Positions 16,900 through 61,337 of a stretch of 64,000 nucleotides of DNA are shown in pieces. Source of the DNA: an uncultured Candidatus Saccharibacteria bacterium (GTDB lineage: Bacteria; Patescibacteriota; Minisyncoccia; Phycocordibacterales; UBA2135); the NCBI GenBank assembly GCA_964348495.1, contig CAYGCZ010000001.1, positions 7,951 through 71,950 of the forward strand. The letters run 5' to 3'. Each line of letters opens with the position of its first letter. The first letter of the stretch is position 1. A program made the position numbers and the translations under genes. The notes under the pieces are model-generated. The model worked only from the letters and a program-made list of their open reading frames with translations. It was not told where the DNA came from and ran no database searches.

Positions 16900-17051
16900 C
16901 GCATCTTCCGCCCCCCGCGCCGGCGTTGGTTTCACTACCAACCCGGCGTTTTTGTTTATTTCCAACCACTCAATCACCCACCCATCCATCCATCCACCAA
17001 CATACTTACATACGCACTCACCTACTCACATATTCACATCCGTCACTCCGG

Positions 17052-17085
17052 AACCTAAAATGATGCACGTGCATCATTTTAGGTT
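17052..17085. repeat. perfect 34-bp palindrome aacctaaaatgatgcac|gtgcatcattttaggtt (palindrome family C, copy 1)
   Basis: Exact two-fold symmetry. It is flanked by a CA-rich arm (16962-17040) and a GT-rich arm (17107-17180). Confidence 0.95.
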
Positions 17086-17227: not shown

Positions 17228-17797
17228 ATGAAGATTCGCGATACCGAGATACCCCTTACTCAGATCGTCCTCGCCCTCGCGGCAGTCGGTGGGTTGTTGC
17301 TTATCGTTGCGGTCGTACCCAACGTCTCCCAAATTTTCAAACTCTTCGGCATTGGAAAAAGAAAAAAGAGCTATACTCCCAAGCAGTACAGCCGTGCCGT
17401 CAAATCATTGGAGCGGCAAGGGTATGTTGCCATTCGGCGTACCGGCCGCGACGAGCGGATTCATATTACGCCCGAAGGTCGTATGGCTTTCGAGCTGTAT
17501 AGGGCACGTCATCTCGACACCGCCCGCCCTAAAAAGTGGGATGGCAAATGGCGTGTGATTATTTTTGATATTGATCGAAAGCGGAGTTTTTTACGCAATA
17601 GGCTTCGTAATACGCTACAAGGTGTAGGTTTTGTGTATGTACAACATAGCGTATGGGCGTTTCCCTATCCTTGCGAATGGCTGGTGCAATTGATAAAAGT
17701 TGATTGCGAGGTGGGTACAGAAGTGCTCTTCCTTACCGTTGAAGCACTAGAAGGTGATGAACGACTACGTCAACATTTTCGTTTGCCACATAAATAA
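17228..17797 (+). CDS. PaaX-like protein: N-terminal TM helix, winged-helix domain and C-terminal Cas2-like (PaaX_C-type) domain
   Basis: TM segment IVLALAAVGGLLLIVAVV. wHTH YSRAVKSLERQGYVAIRRTGRDERIHITPEGR. WDGKWRVIIFDIDRKRSFLRNRLRNTLQGVGFVYVQHSVWAFPY resembles the Cas2/PaaX C-terminal core. Confidence 0.55.
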   Translation: MKIRDTEIPLTQIVLALAAVGGLLLIVAVVPNVSQIFKLFGIGKRKKSYTPKQYSRAVKSLERQGYVAIRRTGRDERIHITPEGRMAFELYRARHLDTARPKKWDGKWRVIIFDIDRKRSFLRNRLRNTLQGVGFVYVQHSVWAFPYPCEWLVQLIKVDCEVGTEVLFLTVEALEGDERLRQHFRLPHK

Positions 17798-17841
17798 CAC
17801 AGAACCTAAAATGATGCACGTGCATCATTTTAGGTTCTGTG
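17798..17841. repeat. perfect 44-bp palindrome (family C, copy 2; same core as 17052-17085, extended by cacag/ctgtg)
   Basis: cacagaacctaaaatgatgcac|gtgcatcattttaggttctgtg. It overlaps the stop codon of the PaaX-like gene. Confidence 0.95.
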
Positions 17842-17960: not shown

Positions 17961-18551
17961 TCATGCATGGTGGTGATCTGCCTCCTTTCCTTGGATGGTT
18001 GTGTAGGTTATCCAGAGGGTGAGTAGGATCATATATACCGAAATCCAGAATGATAGATATGCATCCCACTGTGCGCCACCGGCGTATACGATGATAGCCG
18101 AGGCGAGTACAGCAAATGAAATGAGGACATCGCACAGAAGGTGCGCGTTTACGATGGTCTTGAGCGATCCGCCGTGCATGGGATGAATTATAAGGAACTG
18201 TCCGGCATTTCCTCCCAAACCGATCAGTGCGCCCACGCTCATGAGCAGAGGGTCGACGGGTATCGATCCTGCGTCAATGCGGTGCATCGCCTCGGCGTTT
18301 ACACGCAGTGCGCCGTAGGCGAGGAGGAGTATGCCGGCAATCACGACGGCGCGCCGCAGGGATGCTTTGTTGAGGATCATTGCCGCGAAGGCACCTCCCG
18401 TAACGAGTATGTCGGTAGACATATGCCACGCGTCGCCGGCGAGGGCATTGCTGGCGGAGCAATGTACGAGGATCCATTGCATACAAAGCGCAAGAGATCC
18501 AATACCAAGTGCGAAACCATATCTTCGCGCATCGTGCGTATGAGTGTGCAT
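17961..18551 (-). CDS. cation diffusion facilitator (CDF) family transporter, membrane domain only
   Basis: HMSTDILVTGGAFAAMIL and HAEAM...D metal-site motifs, 5-6 TM segments and a His-rich end (DHHHA). At 196 aa it lacks the usual cytoplasmic C-terminal domain. Confidence 0.65.
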   Translation of the reverse strand: MHTHTHDARRYGFALGIGSLALCMQWILVHCSASNALAGDAWHMSTDILVTGGAFAAMILNKASLRRAVVIAGILLLAYGALRVNAEAMHRIDAGSIPVDPLLMSVGALIGLGGNAGQFLIIHPMHGGSLKTIVNAHLLCDVLISFAVLASAIIVYAGGAQWDAYLSFWISVYMILLTLWITYTTIQGKEADHHHA

Positions 18552-18570
18552 GACACACCTCCGTTTGGGT

Positions 18571-18693
18571 TTATTAGCGACGTAGAGCGAGTGAAATGAG
18601 AAAACGAAGCGAAGCGGAGTTTTCTCATTTCCGAGCCGAGGAGCTAATATGGGTTCAATACCTCGGGGCTCTGCCCCGAGGGACTATATTGCA
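18571..18693. repeat. Repeat family B copy 1 (~123 bp)
   Basis: About 85% identical to 55824..55947. It has internal IR atgagaaaac...gttttctcat and a perfect hairpin cctcggggc-tct-gccccgagg. Confidence 0.85.
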
Positions 18694-18755: not shown

Positions 18756-18922
18756 AGAGCCTGTTCAAGATCTCGCGGTACCCAACGTGAACATACAGGT
18801 TTTTAGGCGAAACATGAGTCGGAGCACGAGTCGTACTAGTAGTACGACGAGTGTGAGACGAAATTTTGTAGCCAAAAACCTCGTGTTTTCAGGTTGGGGG
18901 AAGATCTTGAACAGGCTCTAAG
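18756..18922. repeat. Repeat family A copy 2 (167 bp, perfect 17-bp TIRs)
   Basis: gagcctgttcaagatct ... agatcttgaacaggctc. Same internal structure as 2276..2442. Confidence 0.85.
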
Positions 18923-18981: not shown

Positions 18982-19746
18982 CTATCGCTTCAGCGCTTCT
19001 TCTATAAAGCGCTTCATGGTTTCGTAGGACTGGGCACCGGCGGGGAGGGGAAGGACGGAGCCGTCTTTGAGAATGATGAAGCCGGTCGGGGTGGCACGGA
19101 CGCCGGCGTCGATGCCGCCTTCGAGCTGTTCTGATATGAGATCGGCGTAACGCTCGCTTGTAAGGCAGGTGTTGAATGCGGTGAGGACGGCGCCTTTAAA
19201 GCCGATATTTTGCGCGATCACGGGAAGTTGGTCGAGCTCCAGGCGGTTGTTGGAGGGAGTAATGGCGAAGATGCCATCTATGTACGACCAGAATGCGTCG
19301 CGGCCGCCGACCTCTGCGGCACACTCTGCGGCGCGGGCCTCAACGCGCGCCTTGGGGTGGATGGTATCAAGCGGGAAGTGGCGGTAGACCCACGCCACCT
19401 TGCCGTCATTGCCGTAGGTCTTGTAGACGTTGAGCATCGTCTCGTGGAAGACCTTGCAGAAGGGGCACTCCAAGTCGGAGTATTCAACGACGGTGAGAGC
19501 GGCCTTCGGGTCGCCGCGGAGATGATCATTGGCCGATAGAGGTGGGAGATTTTGCGCCGTCTCTATGGCTCCCTCGTCGGCGGAGGGTTGCGCTGCGCTG
19601 TGCGGGGATTTGGTGATGAGGATGGCACCGGCGATGATGAGGCCGGCGATGATGATCGCCGTGGGCGTTGTGAGGGTAAACCCTGCGCGCTTGTGAGAAG
19701 TTTCGTGTTCCATATGGTTCCATTGTATCTGAAAGAGGGTTTCCAC
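18982..19746 (-). CDS. DsbA-family thiol:disulfide oxidoreductase, membrane-anchored
   Basis: N-terminal TM segment, CPFC active-site motif, thioredoxin-fold context ...VYRHFPLDTIHP... Confidence 0.8.
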   Translation of the reverse strand: METLFQIQWNHMEHETSHKRAGFTLTTPTAIIIAGLIIAGAILITKSPHSAAQPSADEGAIETAQNLPPLSANDHLRGDPKAALTVVEYSDLECPFCKVFHETMLNVYKTYGNDGKVAWVYRHFPLDTIHPKARVEARAAECAAEVGGRDAFWSYIDGIFAITPSNNRLELDQLPVIAQNIGFKGAVLTAFNTCLTSERYADLISEQLEGGIDAGVRATPTGFIILKDGSVLPLPAGAQSYETMKRFIEEALKR

Positions 19747-41698: not shown

Positions 41699-42553
41699 AT
41701 GCGTGATCGGTATTTTGTGATACATAAGGAAGTGGGCGAGACGCCGCTTATGACGGTGGAGCGTTTGCGCGCGGAACGAGGTATCGCGCCCCACGTTAAA
41801 CTCGCCTACGCCGGCCGGCTTGACCCGATGGCGAGCGGGGCGTTGCTCGTACTTACGGGTGATGAATGCAAGCGGCAAAAGGCCTATCACGGCCTCGACA
41901 AAGAGTACGAGTTTGAAGTCCTGCTTGGCGTTTCATCGGACACGGGCGATGTATTGGGATTGGCAGAATACGATCAGATACAGGAACCTACAATCATGCA
42001 CGTGCATGATTGTAGGTTCCCTTTTTCTTCGCGTATGCTTATGAGTGCGGCGCGTTCGTTTCTTGGCACGCACACCTTTCCCTACCCCGCCTTTTCATCA
42101 AAGACCGTCGGCGGGGTGCAGTTGCACCGGCTTGCGGCGGAGGGGCGGTTGAACAAGGCGGAACTGCCCGTACGAGAGGCGACCGTCTATCGGTTGCGCC
42201 TCATTGGGGTGCATACGATCGGCAAGGACGCTCTGCATGCCGCCATCCTCAAAAAGATTGGTACCCTGCCGCAAGTAACCGATGAAGAAAAAGCATGGGG
42301 CAGGGACTTTCGCCGCGAAGAGATCATCGCGCGATGGCGCGATATCTTCGCGAAGATACCCGATGGCGCCTCGTTTCAGATCGCCCGTTTCTCGTGCATT
42401 TGTTCTTCCGGAACCTACATGCGCACCCTCGCCGAAAAGATCGCCGAGCATCTCTCGACGCGCGGCCTCGCCTTCTCCATCCACCGCACAAAGATCGGCC
42501 GCTACATCCCTGTTCTCAGTAAGTGGGGCGTATGGGTACGTCTCTATTGTTAG
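41699..42553 (+). CDS. truB: tRNA pseudouridine(55) synthase-like protein
   Basis: GRLDPMASG, KRQKAYHGLDKEYEFEVLLGVSSDTGD, CSSGTYMRTLAEKIAEHL. Contains the in-frame palindrome 41983..42020. Confidence 0.8.
   Translation: MRDRYFVIHKEVGETPLMTVERLRAERGIAPHVKLAYAGRLDPMASGALLVLTGDECKRQKAYHGLDKEYEFEVLLGVSSDTGDVLGLAEYDQIQEPTIMHVHDCRFPFSSRMLMSAARSFLGTHTFPYPAFSSKTVGGVQLHRLAAEGRLNKAELPVREATVYRLRLIGVHTIGKDALHAAILKKIGTLPQVTDEEKAWGRDFRREEIIARWRDIFAKIPDGASFQIARFSCICSSGTYMRTLAEKIAEHLSTRGLAFSIHRTKIGRYIPVLSKWGVWVRLYC
41983..42020. repeat. perfect 38-bp palindrome (family C variant) inside the truB coding sequence
   Basis: ggaacctacaatcatgcac|gtgcatgattgtaggttcc. It shares the atgcacgtgcat core and aacct/aggtt ends with 17052 and 17798. 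Confidence 0.9.
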
Positions 42554-42560
42554 TTGGGTT

Positions 42561-42623
42561 ATAGGAACTTTTTTAGGTAACTCGGCAAATCAGATTTGCC
42601 GAGTTACCTAAAAAAGTTCCTAT
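42561..42623. repeat. perfect 63-bp palindrome (30-bp arms, 3-nt centre)
   Basis: ataggaacttttttaggtaactcggcaaat-cag-atttgccgagttacctaaaaaagttcctat. The arms are an exact reverse complement. Confidence 0.95.
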
Positions 42624-42645
42624 ACTTCAATAATCCCCACACACC

Positions 42646-52612: not shown

Positions 52613-52755
52613 GGGGACACCTCGCTTTTTTTAGGTTCTGGCTAACACTAACATGAGATAGGTAACACAGTACTGCCATAAGTATAGCAAACTATTTTTC
52701 AGAGAGTGGGGGTGGTGTAGATATCCGGGGATGGCGAGGTGACGGTGCGAATGTC

Positions 52756-52764
52756 TGCTATACT
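52756..52764 (+). promoter_or_regulatory. extended -10 promoter (TGcTATACT) 6 nt before the ATG, giving a leaderless mRNA
   Basis: tctgctatactgtcggtATG. The identical arrangement is found at 54240-54248. Confidence 0.45.
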
Positions 52765-52770
52765 GTCGGT

Positions 52771-53484
52771 ATGAACACATATAACAACAAGTACATCATT
52801 GCGGGGGTTGTTATTGTTTTTATTACCGTTGCGGGGATCTTATCGGTGCGCGGTGAACAAAAGGCGCCCGTTGCTCTGTCACCGGAGCGGGTATACACCG
52901 ATACAGAATATGACTACCACATTACCTATCCTGCAGATTGGCAGGTGAGCACCACGACACTCTTGATCAATTCTGGTGAGGCGGTTGTCGTGTTTCCTGC
53001 GGAACTCGTCGCCTTTCCAGAATGTCAGCAGAGGTTTGAAAAACTGCTTGAAAATCATAAGCAATACAATCCTATCGTTTCGGAAGCAAGCATCTACGAC
53101 AGCGCCCGTGCCGAATCGTGCAGTATTGGCATTACAACGTACAAAAATCCTCAGCATCTCTCAATCAAGGATTTCTTGCAAGATGGTTTTATGCGCGGTA
53201 CGGCATATCAGCAAGCCGATCTTGACCTCATTGCCACACTCACCACGGAGAAGACCGGCAGAGGTGAGGAAGTACTCTCCGATACGGCGTTCTATCTCCA
53301 CGGCTTTGGCGGAGGATATGATGGCGAGGTCGTCCCGGGCGTTATTGTGGGAAAACAGCAATTTATTATTGCGCATAATGATACGATTCTTTTTGTGCAC
53401 AACTCTATCAACCCCACCGATGCAACACTTCCCGGCAGTCACGATATTTTTGAAAAACTAATCAAAAGTATCACCTTCAATTAA
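52771..53484 (+). CDS. membrane-anchored secreted protein, paralog A (YNNKYIIAGVVIVFI N-terminus)
   Basis: N-terminal signal-anchor shared with 54255..54824, followed by YDYHITYPADW. Confidence 0.55.
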   Translation: MNTYNNKYIIAGVVIVFITVAGILSVRGEQKAPVALSPERVYTDTEYDYHITYPADWQVSTTTLLINSGEAVVVFPAELVAFPECQQRFEKLLENHKQYNPIVSEASIYDSARAESCSIGITTYKNPQHLSIKDFLQDGFMRGTAYQQADLDLIATLTTEKTGRGEEVLSDTAFYLHGFGGGYDGEVVPGVIVGKQQFIIAHNDTILFVHNSINPTDATLPGSHDIFEKLIKSITFN

Positions 53485-53519: not shown

Positions 53520-54071
53520 TCACCAATAGTAATTCAGGTTTGAAGGATCAAGGAAGTACTCGGGGTAGGCAGGATCTCCTCCGCATGAAGTATTTTCAGG
53601 AAGTCGACCCCTGTTGGCGATATTGGAGTAAGAAGTATTTCGCACTCCAAAATGAAGATGGGATCCTCCACTATGGTTGTTCACCTCTCCTATCTTTTGT
53701 CCCATGGATACCGATTGTCCGTAACTCACGACTGGTTTGATGTGATGATAGGTGCTCGTCCATGAACTGTGTGAGACGGTAACAAAGTTTCTCTCGTCAG
53801 AGGGATTGTTGTTGTATATCACAACAACCGCTATTGTCCCCGCGTATGCGCTTTCCACTTTTGTGCCGATGGGTGCGGATATATCAATCGCTGTATGAAG
53901 CTGGCGATTGCTTCCGCAATACTGGTTTTGCCAGTGTTCTCCCGGGACGGAGGTAATGATCCATGTATCGGGTAGGCCTGGCAACGGCCATTCTAGGGTG
54001 GGGATAGCCATACACACACTGCTGATAACGGCACATCCTAGAAACAAACATGCTTTTTTGAACAGTTTCAT
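53520..54071 (-). CDS. M23-family metallopeptidase (secreted), copy 1
   Basis: Signal peptide, HTAID (HxxxD) and GSHLHFGV (HxH) motifs. Confidence 0.75.
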   Translation of the reverse strand: MKLFKKACLFLGCAVISSVCMAIPTLEWPLPGLPDTWIITSVPGEHWQNQYCGSNRQLHTAIDISAPIGTKVESAYAGTIAVVVIYNNNPSDERNFVTVSHSSWTSTYHHIKPVVSYGQSVSMGQKIGEVNNHSGGSHLHFGVRNTSYSNIANRGRLPENTSCGGDPAYPEYFLDPSNLNYYW

Positions 54072-54178
54072 CTCACACCTCCTCGGTGTTTTTGGTTAAA
54101 GAACAAGAAAGAACACAACAACAAAAAACGGGGGCCATGTGCCGCGCAGAGCGCAGTACACAACCCCCGTTAGTGTTG
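54072..54178 (-). promoter_or_regulatory. conserved ~107-nt 5' leader with stem-loop, shared by both M23 genes
   Basis: Near-identical to 55441-55550. On the mRNA strand there is an aacggggg...cccccgtt stem, then ccaaaaacaccgaggaggtgtgagATG. Confidence 0.55.
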
Positions 54179-54239
54179 GGGGGTACTGTAGCATGAGCTA
54201 GAAATTTTTGCAAAGTTGAGATAAAAAAGTGTGGCAATC

Positions 54240-54248
54240 TGCTATACT
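54240..54248 (+). promoter_or_regulatory. extended -10 promoter, leaderless arrangement
   Basis: tctgctatactggcgatATG. Confidence 0.45.
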
Positions 54249-54254
54249 GGCGAT

Positions 54255-54824
54255 ATGAAAAAATATAACAACAAGTACATCATCGCTGGGGTTGTTATTG
54301 TTTTTATTGTCGTGGCAGGCGTGTTGCTCGCGCGTGGCGGGGGTGATGAAGGAGTATGGAAAGCACATTCTGAAATAGTTGACGCCACCCATACAAAATA
54401 TATCAACGAAACCCTTGGTTTTTCATTGGTATATCCCTCTGATGTATATCTGGATGATGATGCGCGCCGTCGATCGGTCATCGTCACGACGCTCGCTCCT
54501 GATGATTCGTTGCGGAGAACCGATGCGTTCATCCTGAATTCTCTGCATATCGCACTGCATTCAGAAACAGACTATGCGACATTCGTGCGAGACTATCAAA
54601 CTCGCTCAAGAGAAAAGGATACCTACCCTGACATGATTCTTACGGAAACGCATGTTGCAACATTTCCTGCGGTCCGTGTCAGTTATACAGATCCGTTTTC
54701 CGGTAGTCCCGCACTCCTTTTTATAGTCAATGGAGTACAAGGGGTTTTTACCGTGAGTTATTTTGTCGATGCTGACAACGCCGAAATATATGAAAAGATA
54801 CTCGATGACATGATCCGCCTCTAA
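54255..54824 (+). CDS. membrane-anchored secreted protein, paralog B
   Basis: MKKYNNKYIIAGVVIVFIVVAGVLL...GFSLVYPSDVY. The ATG at 54255 lies inside the ORF 54231..54824. Confidence 0.55.
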   Translation: MKKYNNKYIIAGVVIVFIVVAGVLLARGGGDEGVWKAHSEIVDATHTKYINETLGFSLVYPSDVYLDDDARRRSVIVTTLAPDDSLRRTDAFILNSLHIALHSETDYATFVRDYQTRSREKDTYPDMILTETHVATFPAVRVSYTDPFSGSPALLFIVNGVQGVFTVSYFVDADNAEIYEKILDDMIRL

Positions 54825-54879: not shown

Positions 54880-55440
54880 TTAATTAGGATTGTTTTCGTA
54901 TTGAAGCGACATCGGATTTATAAAAGAACTCGGGAATGCGGGATAACCACCACAAGCAGTTTGTGGTAATGCTCCTACATTGGAGGCGTTTGAATATGCC
55001 GCCTCTCGGACACCAAAATGAAAATGAGTGCCACTTGCAAGGTATCCCACATACCCAATGAGTGATCCTTTATTCACCCACGTATTTGCTGATACAGCCG
55101 GGTTAATGTGCCAATAGACCGTCGTCAATAAGAAGGTGTGTGTCGGTGCATGGTCTATCGTTACAAAACCGACCCATGTTGAGTTGGTCTGTGCCACTTT
55201 TACCCATCCGTCATATGCGGCATATACCGGCTCACCAACGTATGACTCAACATCAACGCCCGTATGTTTTTTAACAAGTCCGTTGCAGTATCCCTCATAC
55301 CAATTACTACCAAAGGAGTAGCCGGTAACAGTCCTATTTTTGATATTTCCTGAAACCGGCGACTCTAGCGTCCATGCCGATGCAATGGTTGTGGAAAATA
55401 CAAGGACAAGAGCGACAACAATTTTTGAAAGAACATTCAT
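54880..55440 (-). CDS. M23-family metallopeptidase (secreted), copy 2
   Basis: HTGVD and GTHFHFGV motifs, with the C-terminal ACGGYPAFP resembling copy 1. Confidence 0.75.
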   Translation of the reverse strand: MNVLSKIVVALVLVFSTTIASAWTLESPVSGNIKNRTVTGYSFGSNWYEGYCNGLVKKHTGVDVESYVGEPVYAAYDGWVKVAQTNSTWVGFVTIDHAPTHTFLLTTVYWHINPAVSANTWVNKGSLIGYVGYLASGTHFHFGVREAAYSNASNVGALPQTACGGYPAFPSSFINPMSLQYENNPN

Positions 55441-55550
55441 CTCACACCCCCTCGGTGTTTTTGGCTAAAGAACAAGAAAGAACACAACAACAAAAACGGG
55501 GGCCGTGTACTCCGCGCCGAAGCGTTTCGTACACAACCCCCGTTAGTGTT
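55441..55550 (-). promoter_or_regulatory. second copy of the conserved M23 5' leader
   Basis: See 54072-54178. Confidence 0.55.
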
Positions 55551-55699: not shown

Positions 55700-55783
55700 A
55701 TGTTTATTCATCAAAACGGCGGCTGTGACGGCGACGGTAGTTGCGGAGACGGCCAATCAGGCGGTACCGGCTGCGGTCATTAG
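55700..55783 (+). CDS. 27-aa Cys/Gly/Asp-rich peptide MFIHQNGGCDGDGSCGDGQSGGTGCGH
   Basis: GAGGAG RBS 7 nt upstream, a promoter upstream, and a perfect terminator immediately downstream. Not in the ORF track because it is under 60 aa. Confidence 0.5.
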   Translation: MFIHQNGGCDGDGSCGDGQSGGTGCGH

Positions 55784-55795
55784 AACAGGCGCACA

Positions 55796-55829
55796 GGCCA
55801 CCATCAAGAAGATGGTGGCCTTTTTTATT
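55796..55829 (+). terminator. intrinsic terminator
   Basis: ggccaccatc-aagaa-gatggtggcc followed by ttttttatt. Confidence 0.8.
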
Positions 55830-55947
55830 AGCAGCATAGAGCGAGTGAGATGAGAAAACGAAGCGAAACTGAGTTTTCTCATTTCCGAGCCGAGGAGCTA
55901 CTATAGGTTCACTACCGCGCGGCTCTGCCCCGAGGGACTATATTACA
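55824..55947. repeat. Repeat family B copy 2
   Basis: About 85% identical to 18571..18693. The terminal hairpin is degenerate in this copy. Confidence 0.85.
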
Positions 55948-57798: not shown

Positions 57799-58593
57799 GT
57801 GCATAATAAAGACATGCGGGCGTTTCTTGTTGAGTTCTGGAGTTTCTTTGTCGCCAATCTGCGGGCGACGTATTTTGGCGTCTTTCTCCTCGCCATATTC
57901 TTGGCGACTGAGTTTGTTACCGTGCCGTTTATAAGCCGCTACGACCTCATTTTTCTTTCCGCGGTCGCTTTCCAGATTGTGGCTTTGGTGTTTCGGTTTG
58001 AACGGTTGCGAGAGTTTTTTGTGATCATCATCTTCCACTTCTTGGCGACGATCATGGAACTGTTCAAAACACATCCCGCAATCGGCTCATGGACCTATCC
58101 GGGGGTGGGGGAAGCGGTCTTCGTCATCGGCACTGTGCCGCTCTTCGCCGGTTTCCTCTACTCCGCGGTCGGAAGTTTTATCTCGCGCGCCTTTGTCTTT
58201 CTCAAACTCTCCTATGAGCGCTTTCCCGCGTATAGCCACGTATGGGTGCTTGCGACACTTATCTATCTCAATTTTTTCACGCACCATTTTTTCTACGACA
58301 TACGGTACCTCTTGTTTGCATACATCGCCGTCATCTTTTGGCGTACGACGGTACATTTTCAGGTATCTGCAAAGCGGCGCAGTATGCCCTTTTTGGCAGC
58401 CGCTTTTTTCACCGCGCTGTTTGTCTGGGTCGCGGAGAATGTGAGCACCTTCACGCATATCTGGCTCTATCCAAGCCAGCTTTCCGGCTGGCACCTCGTC
58501 TCCCCGGAAAAAATCGGCTCATGGTTCCTCTTACTCATCTTGAGCTTTGCGCTCGTGTCGCTCATATACAGGGATACGTTGAAAAGGGGGTAG
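57799..58593 (+). CDS. DUF817-like polytopic membrane protein
   Basis: About 8 TM segments. Its last 28 codons lie within the 88-bp direct repeat. Confidence 0.55.
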   Translation: MHNKDMRAFLVEFWSFFVANLRATYFGVFLLAIFLATEFVTVPFISRYDLIFLSAVAFQIVALVFRFERLREFFVIIIFHFLATIMELFKTHPAIGSWTYPGVGEAVFVIGTVPLFAGFLYSAVGSFISRAFVFLKLSYERFPAYSHVWVLATLIYLNFFTHHFFYDIRYLLFAYIAVIFWRTTVHFQVSAKRRSMPFLAAAFFTALFVWVAENVSTFTHIWLYPSQLSGWHLVSPEKIGSWFLLLILSFALVSLIYRDTLKRG

Positions 58594-58600
58594 GGGGGTG
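58513..58600 (+). repeat. 88-bp direct repeat, left copy (3' end of the DUF817 gene)
   Basis: About 94% identical to 61250..61337. Confidence 0.9.
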
Positions 58601-61243: not shown

Positions 61244-61249
61244 GTCAAG

Positions 61250-61337
61250 ATCGGCTCATGGTTCCTCTTACTCATCTTGAGCTTTGCGCTCGTGTCGCTC
61301 ATATATAGGGATACGTTGCGGAGGGGGTAGGGGGGTG
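61250..61337 (+). repeat. 88-bp direct repeat, right copy (orphan duplicate of the DUF817 3' end)
   Basis: Encodes ...IGSWFLLLILSFALVSLIYRDTLRRG* with no upstream gene body. Confidence 0.9.

Follow-up and report, generated by a model that had tools for sequence, protein, structure and literature searches.

Evidence for a structured repeat family dispersed across Patescibacteria and for its probable mobility

Introduction

Patescibacteria, the bacteria of the CPR, have very small genomes and are usually thought to be poor in repetitive DNA. What is to be made, then, of a non-coding sequence of some 120 nt that occurs twice, in two separate intergenic spacers, on a single contig from this branch? 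The stretch of DNA under analysis, called the window throughout, comprises 64,000 nt of contig CAYGCZ010000001.1. A pair of similar sequences could be a chance duplication, a regulatory leader, a structured RNA or a mobile element, and the question is taken up here through the copies themselves, their relatives in other genomes, their fold and their surroundings.

Two copies in the window and one beyond its end

A repeat search of the window finds one two-copy family here, at 18570-18693 and 55824-55947 (copies 1 and 2). The copies are 124 nt long and 90% identical without gaps, and lie in direct orientation, in register at an offset of 37254. The initial annotation had recognized a two-copy element of about 123 bp with both copies in plus orientation, all of which is borne out; its identity figure of about 85% was too low. 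The two are homologous from TTTATT through TATATT, with unrelated flanks on either side. A covariance model built on the left domain (R1) detects exactly these two copies in the window and nothing further, with scores of 90.3 bits for copy 1, which is in the training set of the model, and 80.4 bits for copy 2.

The top strand of copy 1 has a strong predicted fold relative to shuffled sequences (z = -5.5 as RNA and z = -5.45 as DNA), and that of copy 2 is weak (z = -1.9 for RNA, -1.25 for DNA). The minimum-energy DNA fold of copy 1 is exactly the architecture of the family, and the DNA and RNA folds both give helix P1, the internal loop, hairpin P2 and hairpin H4 (Table 1). An internal inverted repeat had been described earlier as 10 bp long; it is present but measures 13 bp, with GAAATGAGAAAAC (18593-18605) facing GTTTTCTCATTTC (18619-18631) across a 13-nt loop. 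The perfect hairpin with a 9-bp stem that had been read in copy 1 (cctcggggc-tct-gccccgagg) was found again at 18661-18681. Copy 2 carries three changes in the 5' strand of the internal loop and a mismatch in P1 (GCTACTA), so that it resembles a dead copy, and it is probably inactive.

Table 1. Features of the two window copies and of the terminator upstream of copy 2 (window coordinates)
Feature	Position	Strand	Details and basis
Copy 1, short form with one right-domain hairpin	18572-18690	+	left TATT + 115-nt element 18576-18690
P1 5' strand TATTAGC, copy 1	18572-18578	+	pairs with 18643-18649
TATT, presumed target or left cleavage motif	18572-18575	+	within P1 5' strand
Conserved internal loop, 5' strand, GACGTAGAGCGAGt	18579-18592	+	~87-99% conservation per position in 114 copies
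P2 hairpin, 13-bp stem and 13-nt loop with GCGAAGC	18593-18631	+	family-wide covariation
Conserved internal loop, 3' strand, CGAGCCGAGGA	18632-18642	+	same in every retrieved copy; part of both search patterns
P1 3' strand GCTAATA	18643-18649	+	AATA complementary to left TATT and right-end TATT
Right domain: TGGGTTCAATA, H4, then GACTATATT	18650-18690	+	H2/H4 covariation; homology end in three copies
Hairpin H4, CCTCGGGGC-TCT-GCCCCGAGG	18661-18681	+	perfect 9-bp stem in copy 1
Copy 2, degenerate short form	55826-55944	+	left TATT + element 55830-55944
Copy 2 hairpin ccgcgcggc-tct-gccccgagg, chimeric (H2 5' arm + H4 3' arm)	55915-55935	+	alignment with L137:7936-8107
Intrinsic terminator of small upstream gene	55795-55821	+	copy 2 in its T-tail (TTTTTTATT/AGC)

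This genome carries one more copy, the third, a long form of 172 nt that lies about 650 nt beyond the end of the window in the opposite orientation (L137:7936-8107). Its neighbours are an excisionase-like HTH gene and several ORFs without a family match, and a defence-like cluster with an SNF2/PLD protein and an MmeI-like methyltransferase is close by. In the alignment of all three copies, copies 1 and 2 are each short of 52 nt of the long form, at different junctions. The junction in copy 1 falls within a repeated (A/T)TACC, and that in copy 2 falls inside the repeated GGCTCTGCC loop, such that the 5' arm of H2 is fused to the 3' arm of H4. On this alignment, copies 1 and 2 are best read as independent 52-nt deletion derivatives of the long form. 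The hairpin of copy 2, earlier called decayed, is indeed imperfect, but the imperfection is that of an H2/H4 chimera from the 52-nt deletion and not of decay by point mutation. All three copies of this genome cease to be homologous after TATATT. In an independent assembly of this organism, contigs break off within copies 2 and 3, as expected of a repeat.

Other repeats in the window

Several further repeats were observed in the window. One of them, here called family A to set it apart from the present family (family B), has two copies of 167 nt (2276-2442 and 18756-18922) that are 92% identical. Given its terminal inverted repeats of about 20 bp (AGAGCCTGTTCAAGATCT...AGATCTTGAACAGGCTCT) and its long internal palindrome, family A is a classical TIR-MITE. 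One of its copies lies 65 nt from family B copy 1 in the same spacer, and the two families are unrelated. A perfect 36-nt palindrome, GAACCTAAAATGATGCACGTGCATCATTTTAGGTTC, stands on both sides of a gene for a PaaX-like regulator (17228-17797), at 17050-17085 and 17802-17837, and could be an operator or a terminator; a third copy, 89% similar, is found 24 kb away at 41984-42020. Another perfect palindrome has arms of 32 nt each with one base between them (42560-42624; TATAGGAACTTTTTTAGGTAACTCGGCAAATC and its complement). A 91-nt repeat at 58510-58600 and 61247-61337, 95% identical, spans gene ends and the G-rich sequence downstream, and its third copy (L137:7790-7880) is in reverse orientation and adjoins the third family B element. 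Finally, a gene pair is duplicated in tandem, comprising an M23 peptidase gene (53520-54071 and 54880-55440) and a neighbouring gene of about 190-240 aa, and the ends of this duplication are 88-94% identical (52754-52835 / 54238-54319 and 54067-54133 / 55436-55502).

Architecture and covariation of the family

The typical element reads, in order, (t)TTTATT / AGC, GACGTAGAGCGAGn, the P2 hairpin, CGAGCCGAGGA, GCTAATA, the right domain and TATT, and is found directly 3' of a T-rich TTTATT that is often the tail of a terminator. Helix P1, TATTAGC/GCTAATA, is paired in 98% of 107 distinct copies and has compensatory TATAAGC/GCTTATA variants. The internal loop is purine-rich and nearly invariant on both strands (GACGTAGAGCGAGn and CGAGCCGAGGA). 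The 5' strand of the loop is conserved (Table 1) and was absent from the pattern used to search metagenomes. The 3' strand of the loop and the 3' strand of P1 were fixed by the search patterns, and therefore their invariance is not independent evidence.

Hairpin P2 is conserved as a structure. All 12 of its modelled pairs are changed on both sides across the family, with 96.7% pairing, and some copies have P2 stems of wholly unrelated sequence (L082, L072 and L050, for instance). The predicted stem reaches up to about 30 bp, with a median of 11, and loops of the GCGAAGC type recur. Over the model alignment, 97.2% of cells are paired, and double changes occur in 16 of 19 pairs, as compared to 9.6 +/- 1.1 pairs in shuffled controls and 6-9 in controls with slid partners. 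Fitting of the alignment to the covariance model inflates the pairing somewhat, but model fitting alone cannot yield the 263 doubly changed cells.

The right domain consists of zero to three GC-rich hairpins closed by helix P3 and ends in TATT. Compensated variants of P3 were found (AGTCC/GGACT, AGGTT/AACCT, AGGGT/ACCCT and AGGAG/CTCCT); this evidence is descriptive, since complementarity was itself the criterion for placing the end points. Covariation is also seen in hairpins H2 and H4, where 7 of 13 pairs carry compensatory changes across 21 long-form right domains, and the middle module is often GAGCGAAGCGAG. Minimal elements are almost without a right domain, such as that of L028 (GCTAATATAGGCCTATATT). 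By a crude automated search for the ends, elements measure about 78-390 nt, with a median of about 153. The central GCTAATA(TAGxx) is complementary both to the left junction (TATT/AGC) and to the right end (xxCTATATT), and the junction of tandem arrays, ...GGACTATATT/AGC, is the exact complement of GCTAATATAGTCC.

Two departures from the usual core were observed. A second, rarer core type (L004:640-730, L025:8700-8790 and L077 at ~1770-1840) has the same P1 or a covarying one, but its loops are rich in pyrimidines (CACTCGGAC / GCTCCTCGCTyGG) and form rough complements of the purine-rich loops of the usual core; at all three loci it lies directly 3' of a normal unit with a minimal right domain. 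In L075:1580-1760 and L065:12526-12700, an insertion of about 90 nt sits inside the conserved 3' strand of the loop, between CGAGCCGAGG and AGCTAATA, which shows nested rearrangement of the family.

Distribution across genomes and metagenomes

An exact search for the core 22-mer, over one genome for each of 185,579 species, matched 11 genome contigs. All 11 are from MAGs labelled CPR or DPANN; by the depositors' own labels, ten are Patescibacteria (Yonathbacteria, Paceibacterota, Minisyncoccia and "Saccharibacteria") and one is a Woesearchaeota. One contig labelled "Saccharibacteria" (L001) matches a Yonathbacteria contig at 85% identity along 4.6 kb, so the fine taxonomy is unreliable. The window organism is itself, as judged from its sequence, a patescibacterium; the best non-self matches of its S9 peptidase are proteins of about 60% identity from Minisyncoccota, Parcubacteria and Kaiserbacteria. 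In metagenomes, the core 19-mer was matched exactly in at least 120 contigs. With the covariance model, 100 metagenome loci yielded 114 copies, and 22 additional sources contributed about 25, among them the third copy of this genome. Scores lie between 101 and 36 bits and trace a spectrum of decay. The many genomes that carry the family range in GC content from 34 to 52%.

No match to the core was found in viral contigs (two scans) or in phages and plasmids (BLAST), and the family is essentially confined to Patescibacteria. Rfam 15 gave no match at the gathering threshold in the window, only tRNAs at that threshold in 20 element-bearing loci, and only chance-level matches at E<=10 in the region of copy 1. 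Complements of the conserved loops elsewhere in the window were found only as chance-level matches with two mismatches. Full-text literature searches, both with the core sequences and on repeats, MITEs or REPs of CPR, returned nothing on the family, which is apparently undescribed so far. With at least three copies in the genome under study, over 130 in other contigs and the doubly changed pairs described above, the finding of the initial annotation, for which further copies in the genome and its relatives and a comparison with Rfam had been proposed as checks, stands. It is very probable that the element belongs to a structured, dispersed repeat family that extends CPR-wide.

Gene context and orientation

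Copy 1 lies in the spacer of 430 nt that separates a DsbA-like gene (18982-19746) from a gene with a weak match to the Cation_efflux family (17961-18551). Both genes are on the minus strand, antisense to the copy, whose left end falls about 20 nt from the start of the second. The right end of copy 2 is 29 nt before the start of the S9 peptidase gene (55974). The strong terminator in whose tail copy 2 sits (Table 1) is that of a 27-codon ORF (55700-55783; MFIHQNGGCDGDGSCGDGQSGGTGCGH), which is preceded by a good ribosome-binding site and could encode a small Cys/Gly-rich peptide. Further copies were found directly behind a hairpin and T-run, for example in L001, L007, L023, L028 and L035. A strong hairpin is present just upstream of 22% of copies, as compared to 12% of control TTTATT sites. 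Upstream positions -1 and -2 are T in 80-85% of copies, giving tTTTATT as the target consensus.

Orientation with respect to neighbouring genes is near-random. For about 115 copies, the upstream gene has the same orientation in 64 cases and the opposite in 51, and the downstream gene in 66 and 50, respectively. Only 8 of 139 copies lie inside a predicted ORF, and the remainder are intergenic. No gene family is enriched next to the element among its loci, and no transposase was found there; the most frequent neighbour clusters are ordinary housekeeping genes (EF-G, L10, L7/L12, S12, Dus, pilins and response regulators). A sigma-70-like promoter was found at neither window copy, and no conserved promoter-like sequence precedes the copies. 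The orientation counts and the lack of an enriched gene family support the argument, made at the outset from the two window copies, against a cis-regulatory leader, and a riboswitch or a 3'-UTR element is rejected on the same grounds. In three genomes, sense copies stand directly upstream of rplJ, the gene for L10 (L064:329-454, L104:4315-4413 and L050:2127-2271), which reflects either an insertion hot spot or a retained copy.

Evidence for and against mobility

Several properties of the family are those of an element that moves. Head-to-tail arrays share a common TATT (five copies in L107, three in L123, and others in L086, L075, L112 and L043), near-identical copies with unrelated flanks are found in one population (L027, L124, L127a and L127b), and nested and composite forms occur. 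An all-versus-all megablast of the loci returned no pair of filled and empty sites; the S9 peptidase has no relative above about 60% identity with which to look for an empty site, and exact-protein look-ups led to the same genome only. Insertion is therefore deduced and not observed. Queries with the TnpA proteins of IS200 and IS608 were run against about 1 Mb of element-bearing loci and the window; phmmer gave nothing at E<=10, and the best E-value by tblastn was 0.25. No full-length autonomous or ORF-bearing version was seen among about 150 copies. For non-tandem copy pairs within 10 kb, our own count is of about 6 in the same and about 5 in opposite orientation.

At an orthologous locus in two genomes that are about 85% identical, the element is identical at 90 of 90 positions, and the flanks within 200 nt are 93-96% identical. 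Together with the copies before rplJ, this gives a hint of selection acting on the locus or of a hot spot for insertion. Taken as a whole, the family probably is, or once was, mobile.

DNA or RNA as the folded strand

In the stems, G-T pairs outnumber A-C pairs by 40 to 17, which identifies one strand as the structured strand. The loops of P2 are T/A-rich, and neither GNRA nor UUCG loops were seen among them. The sequence GCGAAGC forms an unusually stable DNA hairpin. Random orientation, the lack of a conserved promoter, the T/A-rich loops, the GCGAAGC motifs and the position of copy 2 behind a terminator favour single-stranded DNA. An RNA or a function at the level of the locus is favoured by the invariant junction with its free stems, by the orthologous locus and by the sense copies before rplJ. 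On balance, the element is more likely to be handled as DNA than as RNA.

Interpretation

The explanation preferred here, with moderate confidence, is that of a non-autonomous mobile repeat, REP/BIME- or MITE-like, whose active form is a folded single strand and whose insertion site follows TTTATT. In short, a trans-acting enzyme would recognize, excise and insert the element as a folded single strand, and insertion would take place 3' of TTTATT. The internal AATA would be the guide that aligns the sites of cleavage and joining, such that TATT-3' ends are brought to the 5'-AGC end. Such a mechanism would be formally like the transposition of IS200/IS605 (HUH Y1), which relies on pairing between the cleavage sites and internal guide tetranucleotides. 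The mobilizing enzyme may be HUH-like, although this is less likely than not, and a strict IS200/IS605 reading has against it that about 1 Mb yielded no TnpA homologue, that none of the copies seen was autonomous and that nearby copies lack an orientation bias. It is somewhat unlikely that the family represents a new, CPR-specific kind of element, be it a guide-bearing single-strand mobile element or a catalytic or guide RNA. Were it so, a single guide, GCTAATATAGxx, would pair both with the target or left junction and with the right end of the element, and the invariant purine-rich loop would be the core for recognition or catalysis, whether for an enzyme or for the nucleic acid itself.

The main rival, judged unlikely, is a structured non-coding RNA motif copied around CPR genomes, which would bind protein or be catalytic, possibly cleaving itself at TATT/AGC; the conserved internal loop would be its functional core, and P2 would be a structural spacer. 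About 25 nearly invariant loop nucleotides lie between freely covarying stems, and invariant junction nucleotides with free stems are a pattern typical of functional RNAs. The excess of G-U over A-C pairs on one strand, the sharp conservation at the orthologous locus and the sense copies immediately upstream of genes such as rplJ also agree with an RNA. However, Rfam offers no match at the gathering threshold in the window or in the 20 loci and nothing relevant at E<=10, orientation is random with respect to transcription, and no promoter is conserved upstream or present at the window copies. In addition, the T/A-rich loops lack GNRA or UNCG forms, copy 2 lies directly behind a strong terminator, and copies decay and suffer deletion, as copy 2 did. 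Random orientation also speaks against a host-domesticated REP-like element with a putative cis role at the DNA or mRNA level, in that a strand-specific RNA role cannot be general. Domestication, which is compatible with a mobile origin, is quite unlikely as the explanation of the family; the element might reinforce terminators, stabilize mRNA 3' ends, insulate operons or lend its -10-like ends (TATATT / TAATAA) to adjacent genes. It would account for the many copies in terminator T-tails, with the excess of upstream hairpins given above, for the placement of both window copies with one end 20-30 nt from a start codon, for the nearly exclusive intergenic location and for conservation at the orthologous locus, yet no sigma-70-like promoter was detected at the window copies and no T-run follows hairpin H4.

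Two other readings fare worse. A classical MITE, derived from an insertion sequence with a DDE transposase and moving as double-stranded DNA with terminal inverted repeats and target-site duplication, is very unlikely. The element is small, non-coding, multi-copy and intergenic, and the TATT at both ends can be read as a 4-bp duplication, but the right-end TATT is within an internal helix and not in the flank, and the flanking motif is always identical. Moreover, its ends, (TATT)AGCGACG... and ...CTATATT, are not inverted repeats: AGCGACGTAGAG... at the left stands against ...GGGACTATATT at the right, and the left end AGCGACGTAGAGCG is not the reverse complement of the right end. The TIR-MITE of this genome is family A, beside copy 1, from which family B differs. 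Of the initial proposal of a dispersed MITE- or sRNA-type repeat, dispersal is thus upheld by the copies in this genome and elsewhere; a classical MITE, for want of terminal inverted repeats, is not. A unit of a guide-RNA array, TIGR-Tas or CRISPR-like, or a chance or segmental duplication is extremely unlikely. TIGR systems are present in CPR; in one type the tandem units are stem-loops with a pair of short single-stranded segments (PMC12045711), which the tandem copies at some loci recall. TIGR arrays, however, have variable spacers and an adjoining gene for a Tas protein with a Nop domain (PMC12045711), whereas here both loop strands are invariant across genomes, the copies are mostly solitary and scattered, and no protein family is associated or recurs as a neighbour. 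Chance duplication is ruled out by 90% identity over 124 nt and by the presence of the core in more than 130 unrelated contigs, and the same external copies exclude a local duplication.

Other candidates were considered and rejected. The copies are not the TR/VR pair of a diversity-generating retroelement, given that their differences are not adenine-specific and that they do not lie in the 3' end of a gene. Inspection gave no match to group I/II intron fragments, to a K-turn register or to loop B of the hairpin ribozyme.

Significance

The family would mark an unrecognized system of mobile elements, or a structured nucleic-acid motif, in a huge uncultured branch of the bacteria. It explains contig breaks in CPR assemblies, and GACGTAGAGCGAG...CCGAGCCGAGGAGCTAATA provides a simple sequence tag by which CPR contigs can be recognized. 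The combination of an invariant loop, a free hairpin and a defined junction, TATT/AGC, makes the element a tractable substrate for finding the enzyme that recognizes it.

Comparison with known systems

The REP/BIME elements of Proteobacteria, which are associated with RAYT/TnpA_REP, are also short, intergenic and multi-copy, with structure in a single strand, and they too are mosaic and modular, form tandem clusters and often lie beside terminators. REPs have GTAG 5' of the hairpin, and in this family GTAG occurs 5' of the hairpin as well, within GACGTAGAG of the conserved 5' strand of the loop. In contrast, the REP palindrome is conserved in sequence and specific to a species, whereas here the hairpin is free and the unpaired strands are invariant across genomes. 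No RAYT or Y1 transposase was found with this family by the IS200/IS608 TnpA queries of about 1 Mb of loci and the window, and REPs have neither TATT ends nor an architecture of two domains.

Elements of the IS200/IS605 group and their non-autonomous derivatives (PATEs) share with this family the lack of terminal inverted repeats, the subterminal hairpins near both ends, insertion 3' of a fixed short motif at the left junction and a fixed motif at the right end. IS200/IS605 elements resemble it further in an internal tetranucleotide complementary to the cleavage motifs, in strand-specific structure and in head-to-tail junctions. The geometry is similar as well: about 17 nt separate the foot of the hairpin from the left junction and 9 nt separate it from the right end, and the corresponding distances in IS608 are 19 and 10. 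Unlike IS200/IS605, which have one guide per end, this family has one central guide for both ends, and its hairpin sequence is not conserved. Neither TnpA, TnpB nor an autonomous partner was seen in about 1 Mb of loci with about 150 copies, and the near-equal orientations in the small set of nearby copy pairs counted here fit poorly with the strong replication-strand bias known for IS200/IS605.

The BOX elements of Streptococcus pneumoniae (boxA-boxB(n)-boxC) are likewise modular, in that the number of internal modules varies, and they too lie dispersed in intergenic DNA and have a stable secondary structure. Their sequences are unrelated to those of this family, their ends are inverted relative to each other, and they are limited to one genus, whereas this family spans many CPR lineages. 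The attC sites of integrons offer a last parallel, in that they are recognized as a folded single strand, as is presumed here, and carry conserved short boxes around a hairpin of variable length that is conserved in structure and free in sequence. The present copies differ from attC sites in having no cassettes, integrase or R/L box consensus (GTTRRRY), and they are scattered rather than gathered in a cassette array.
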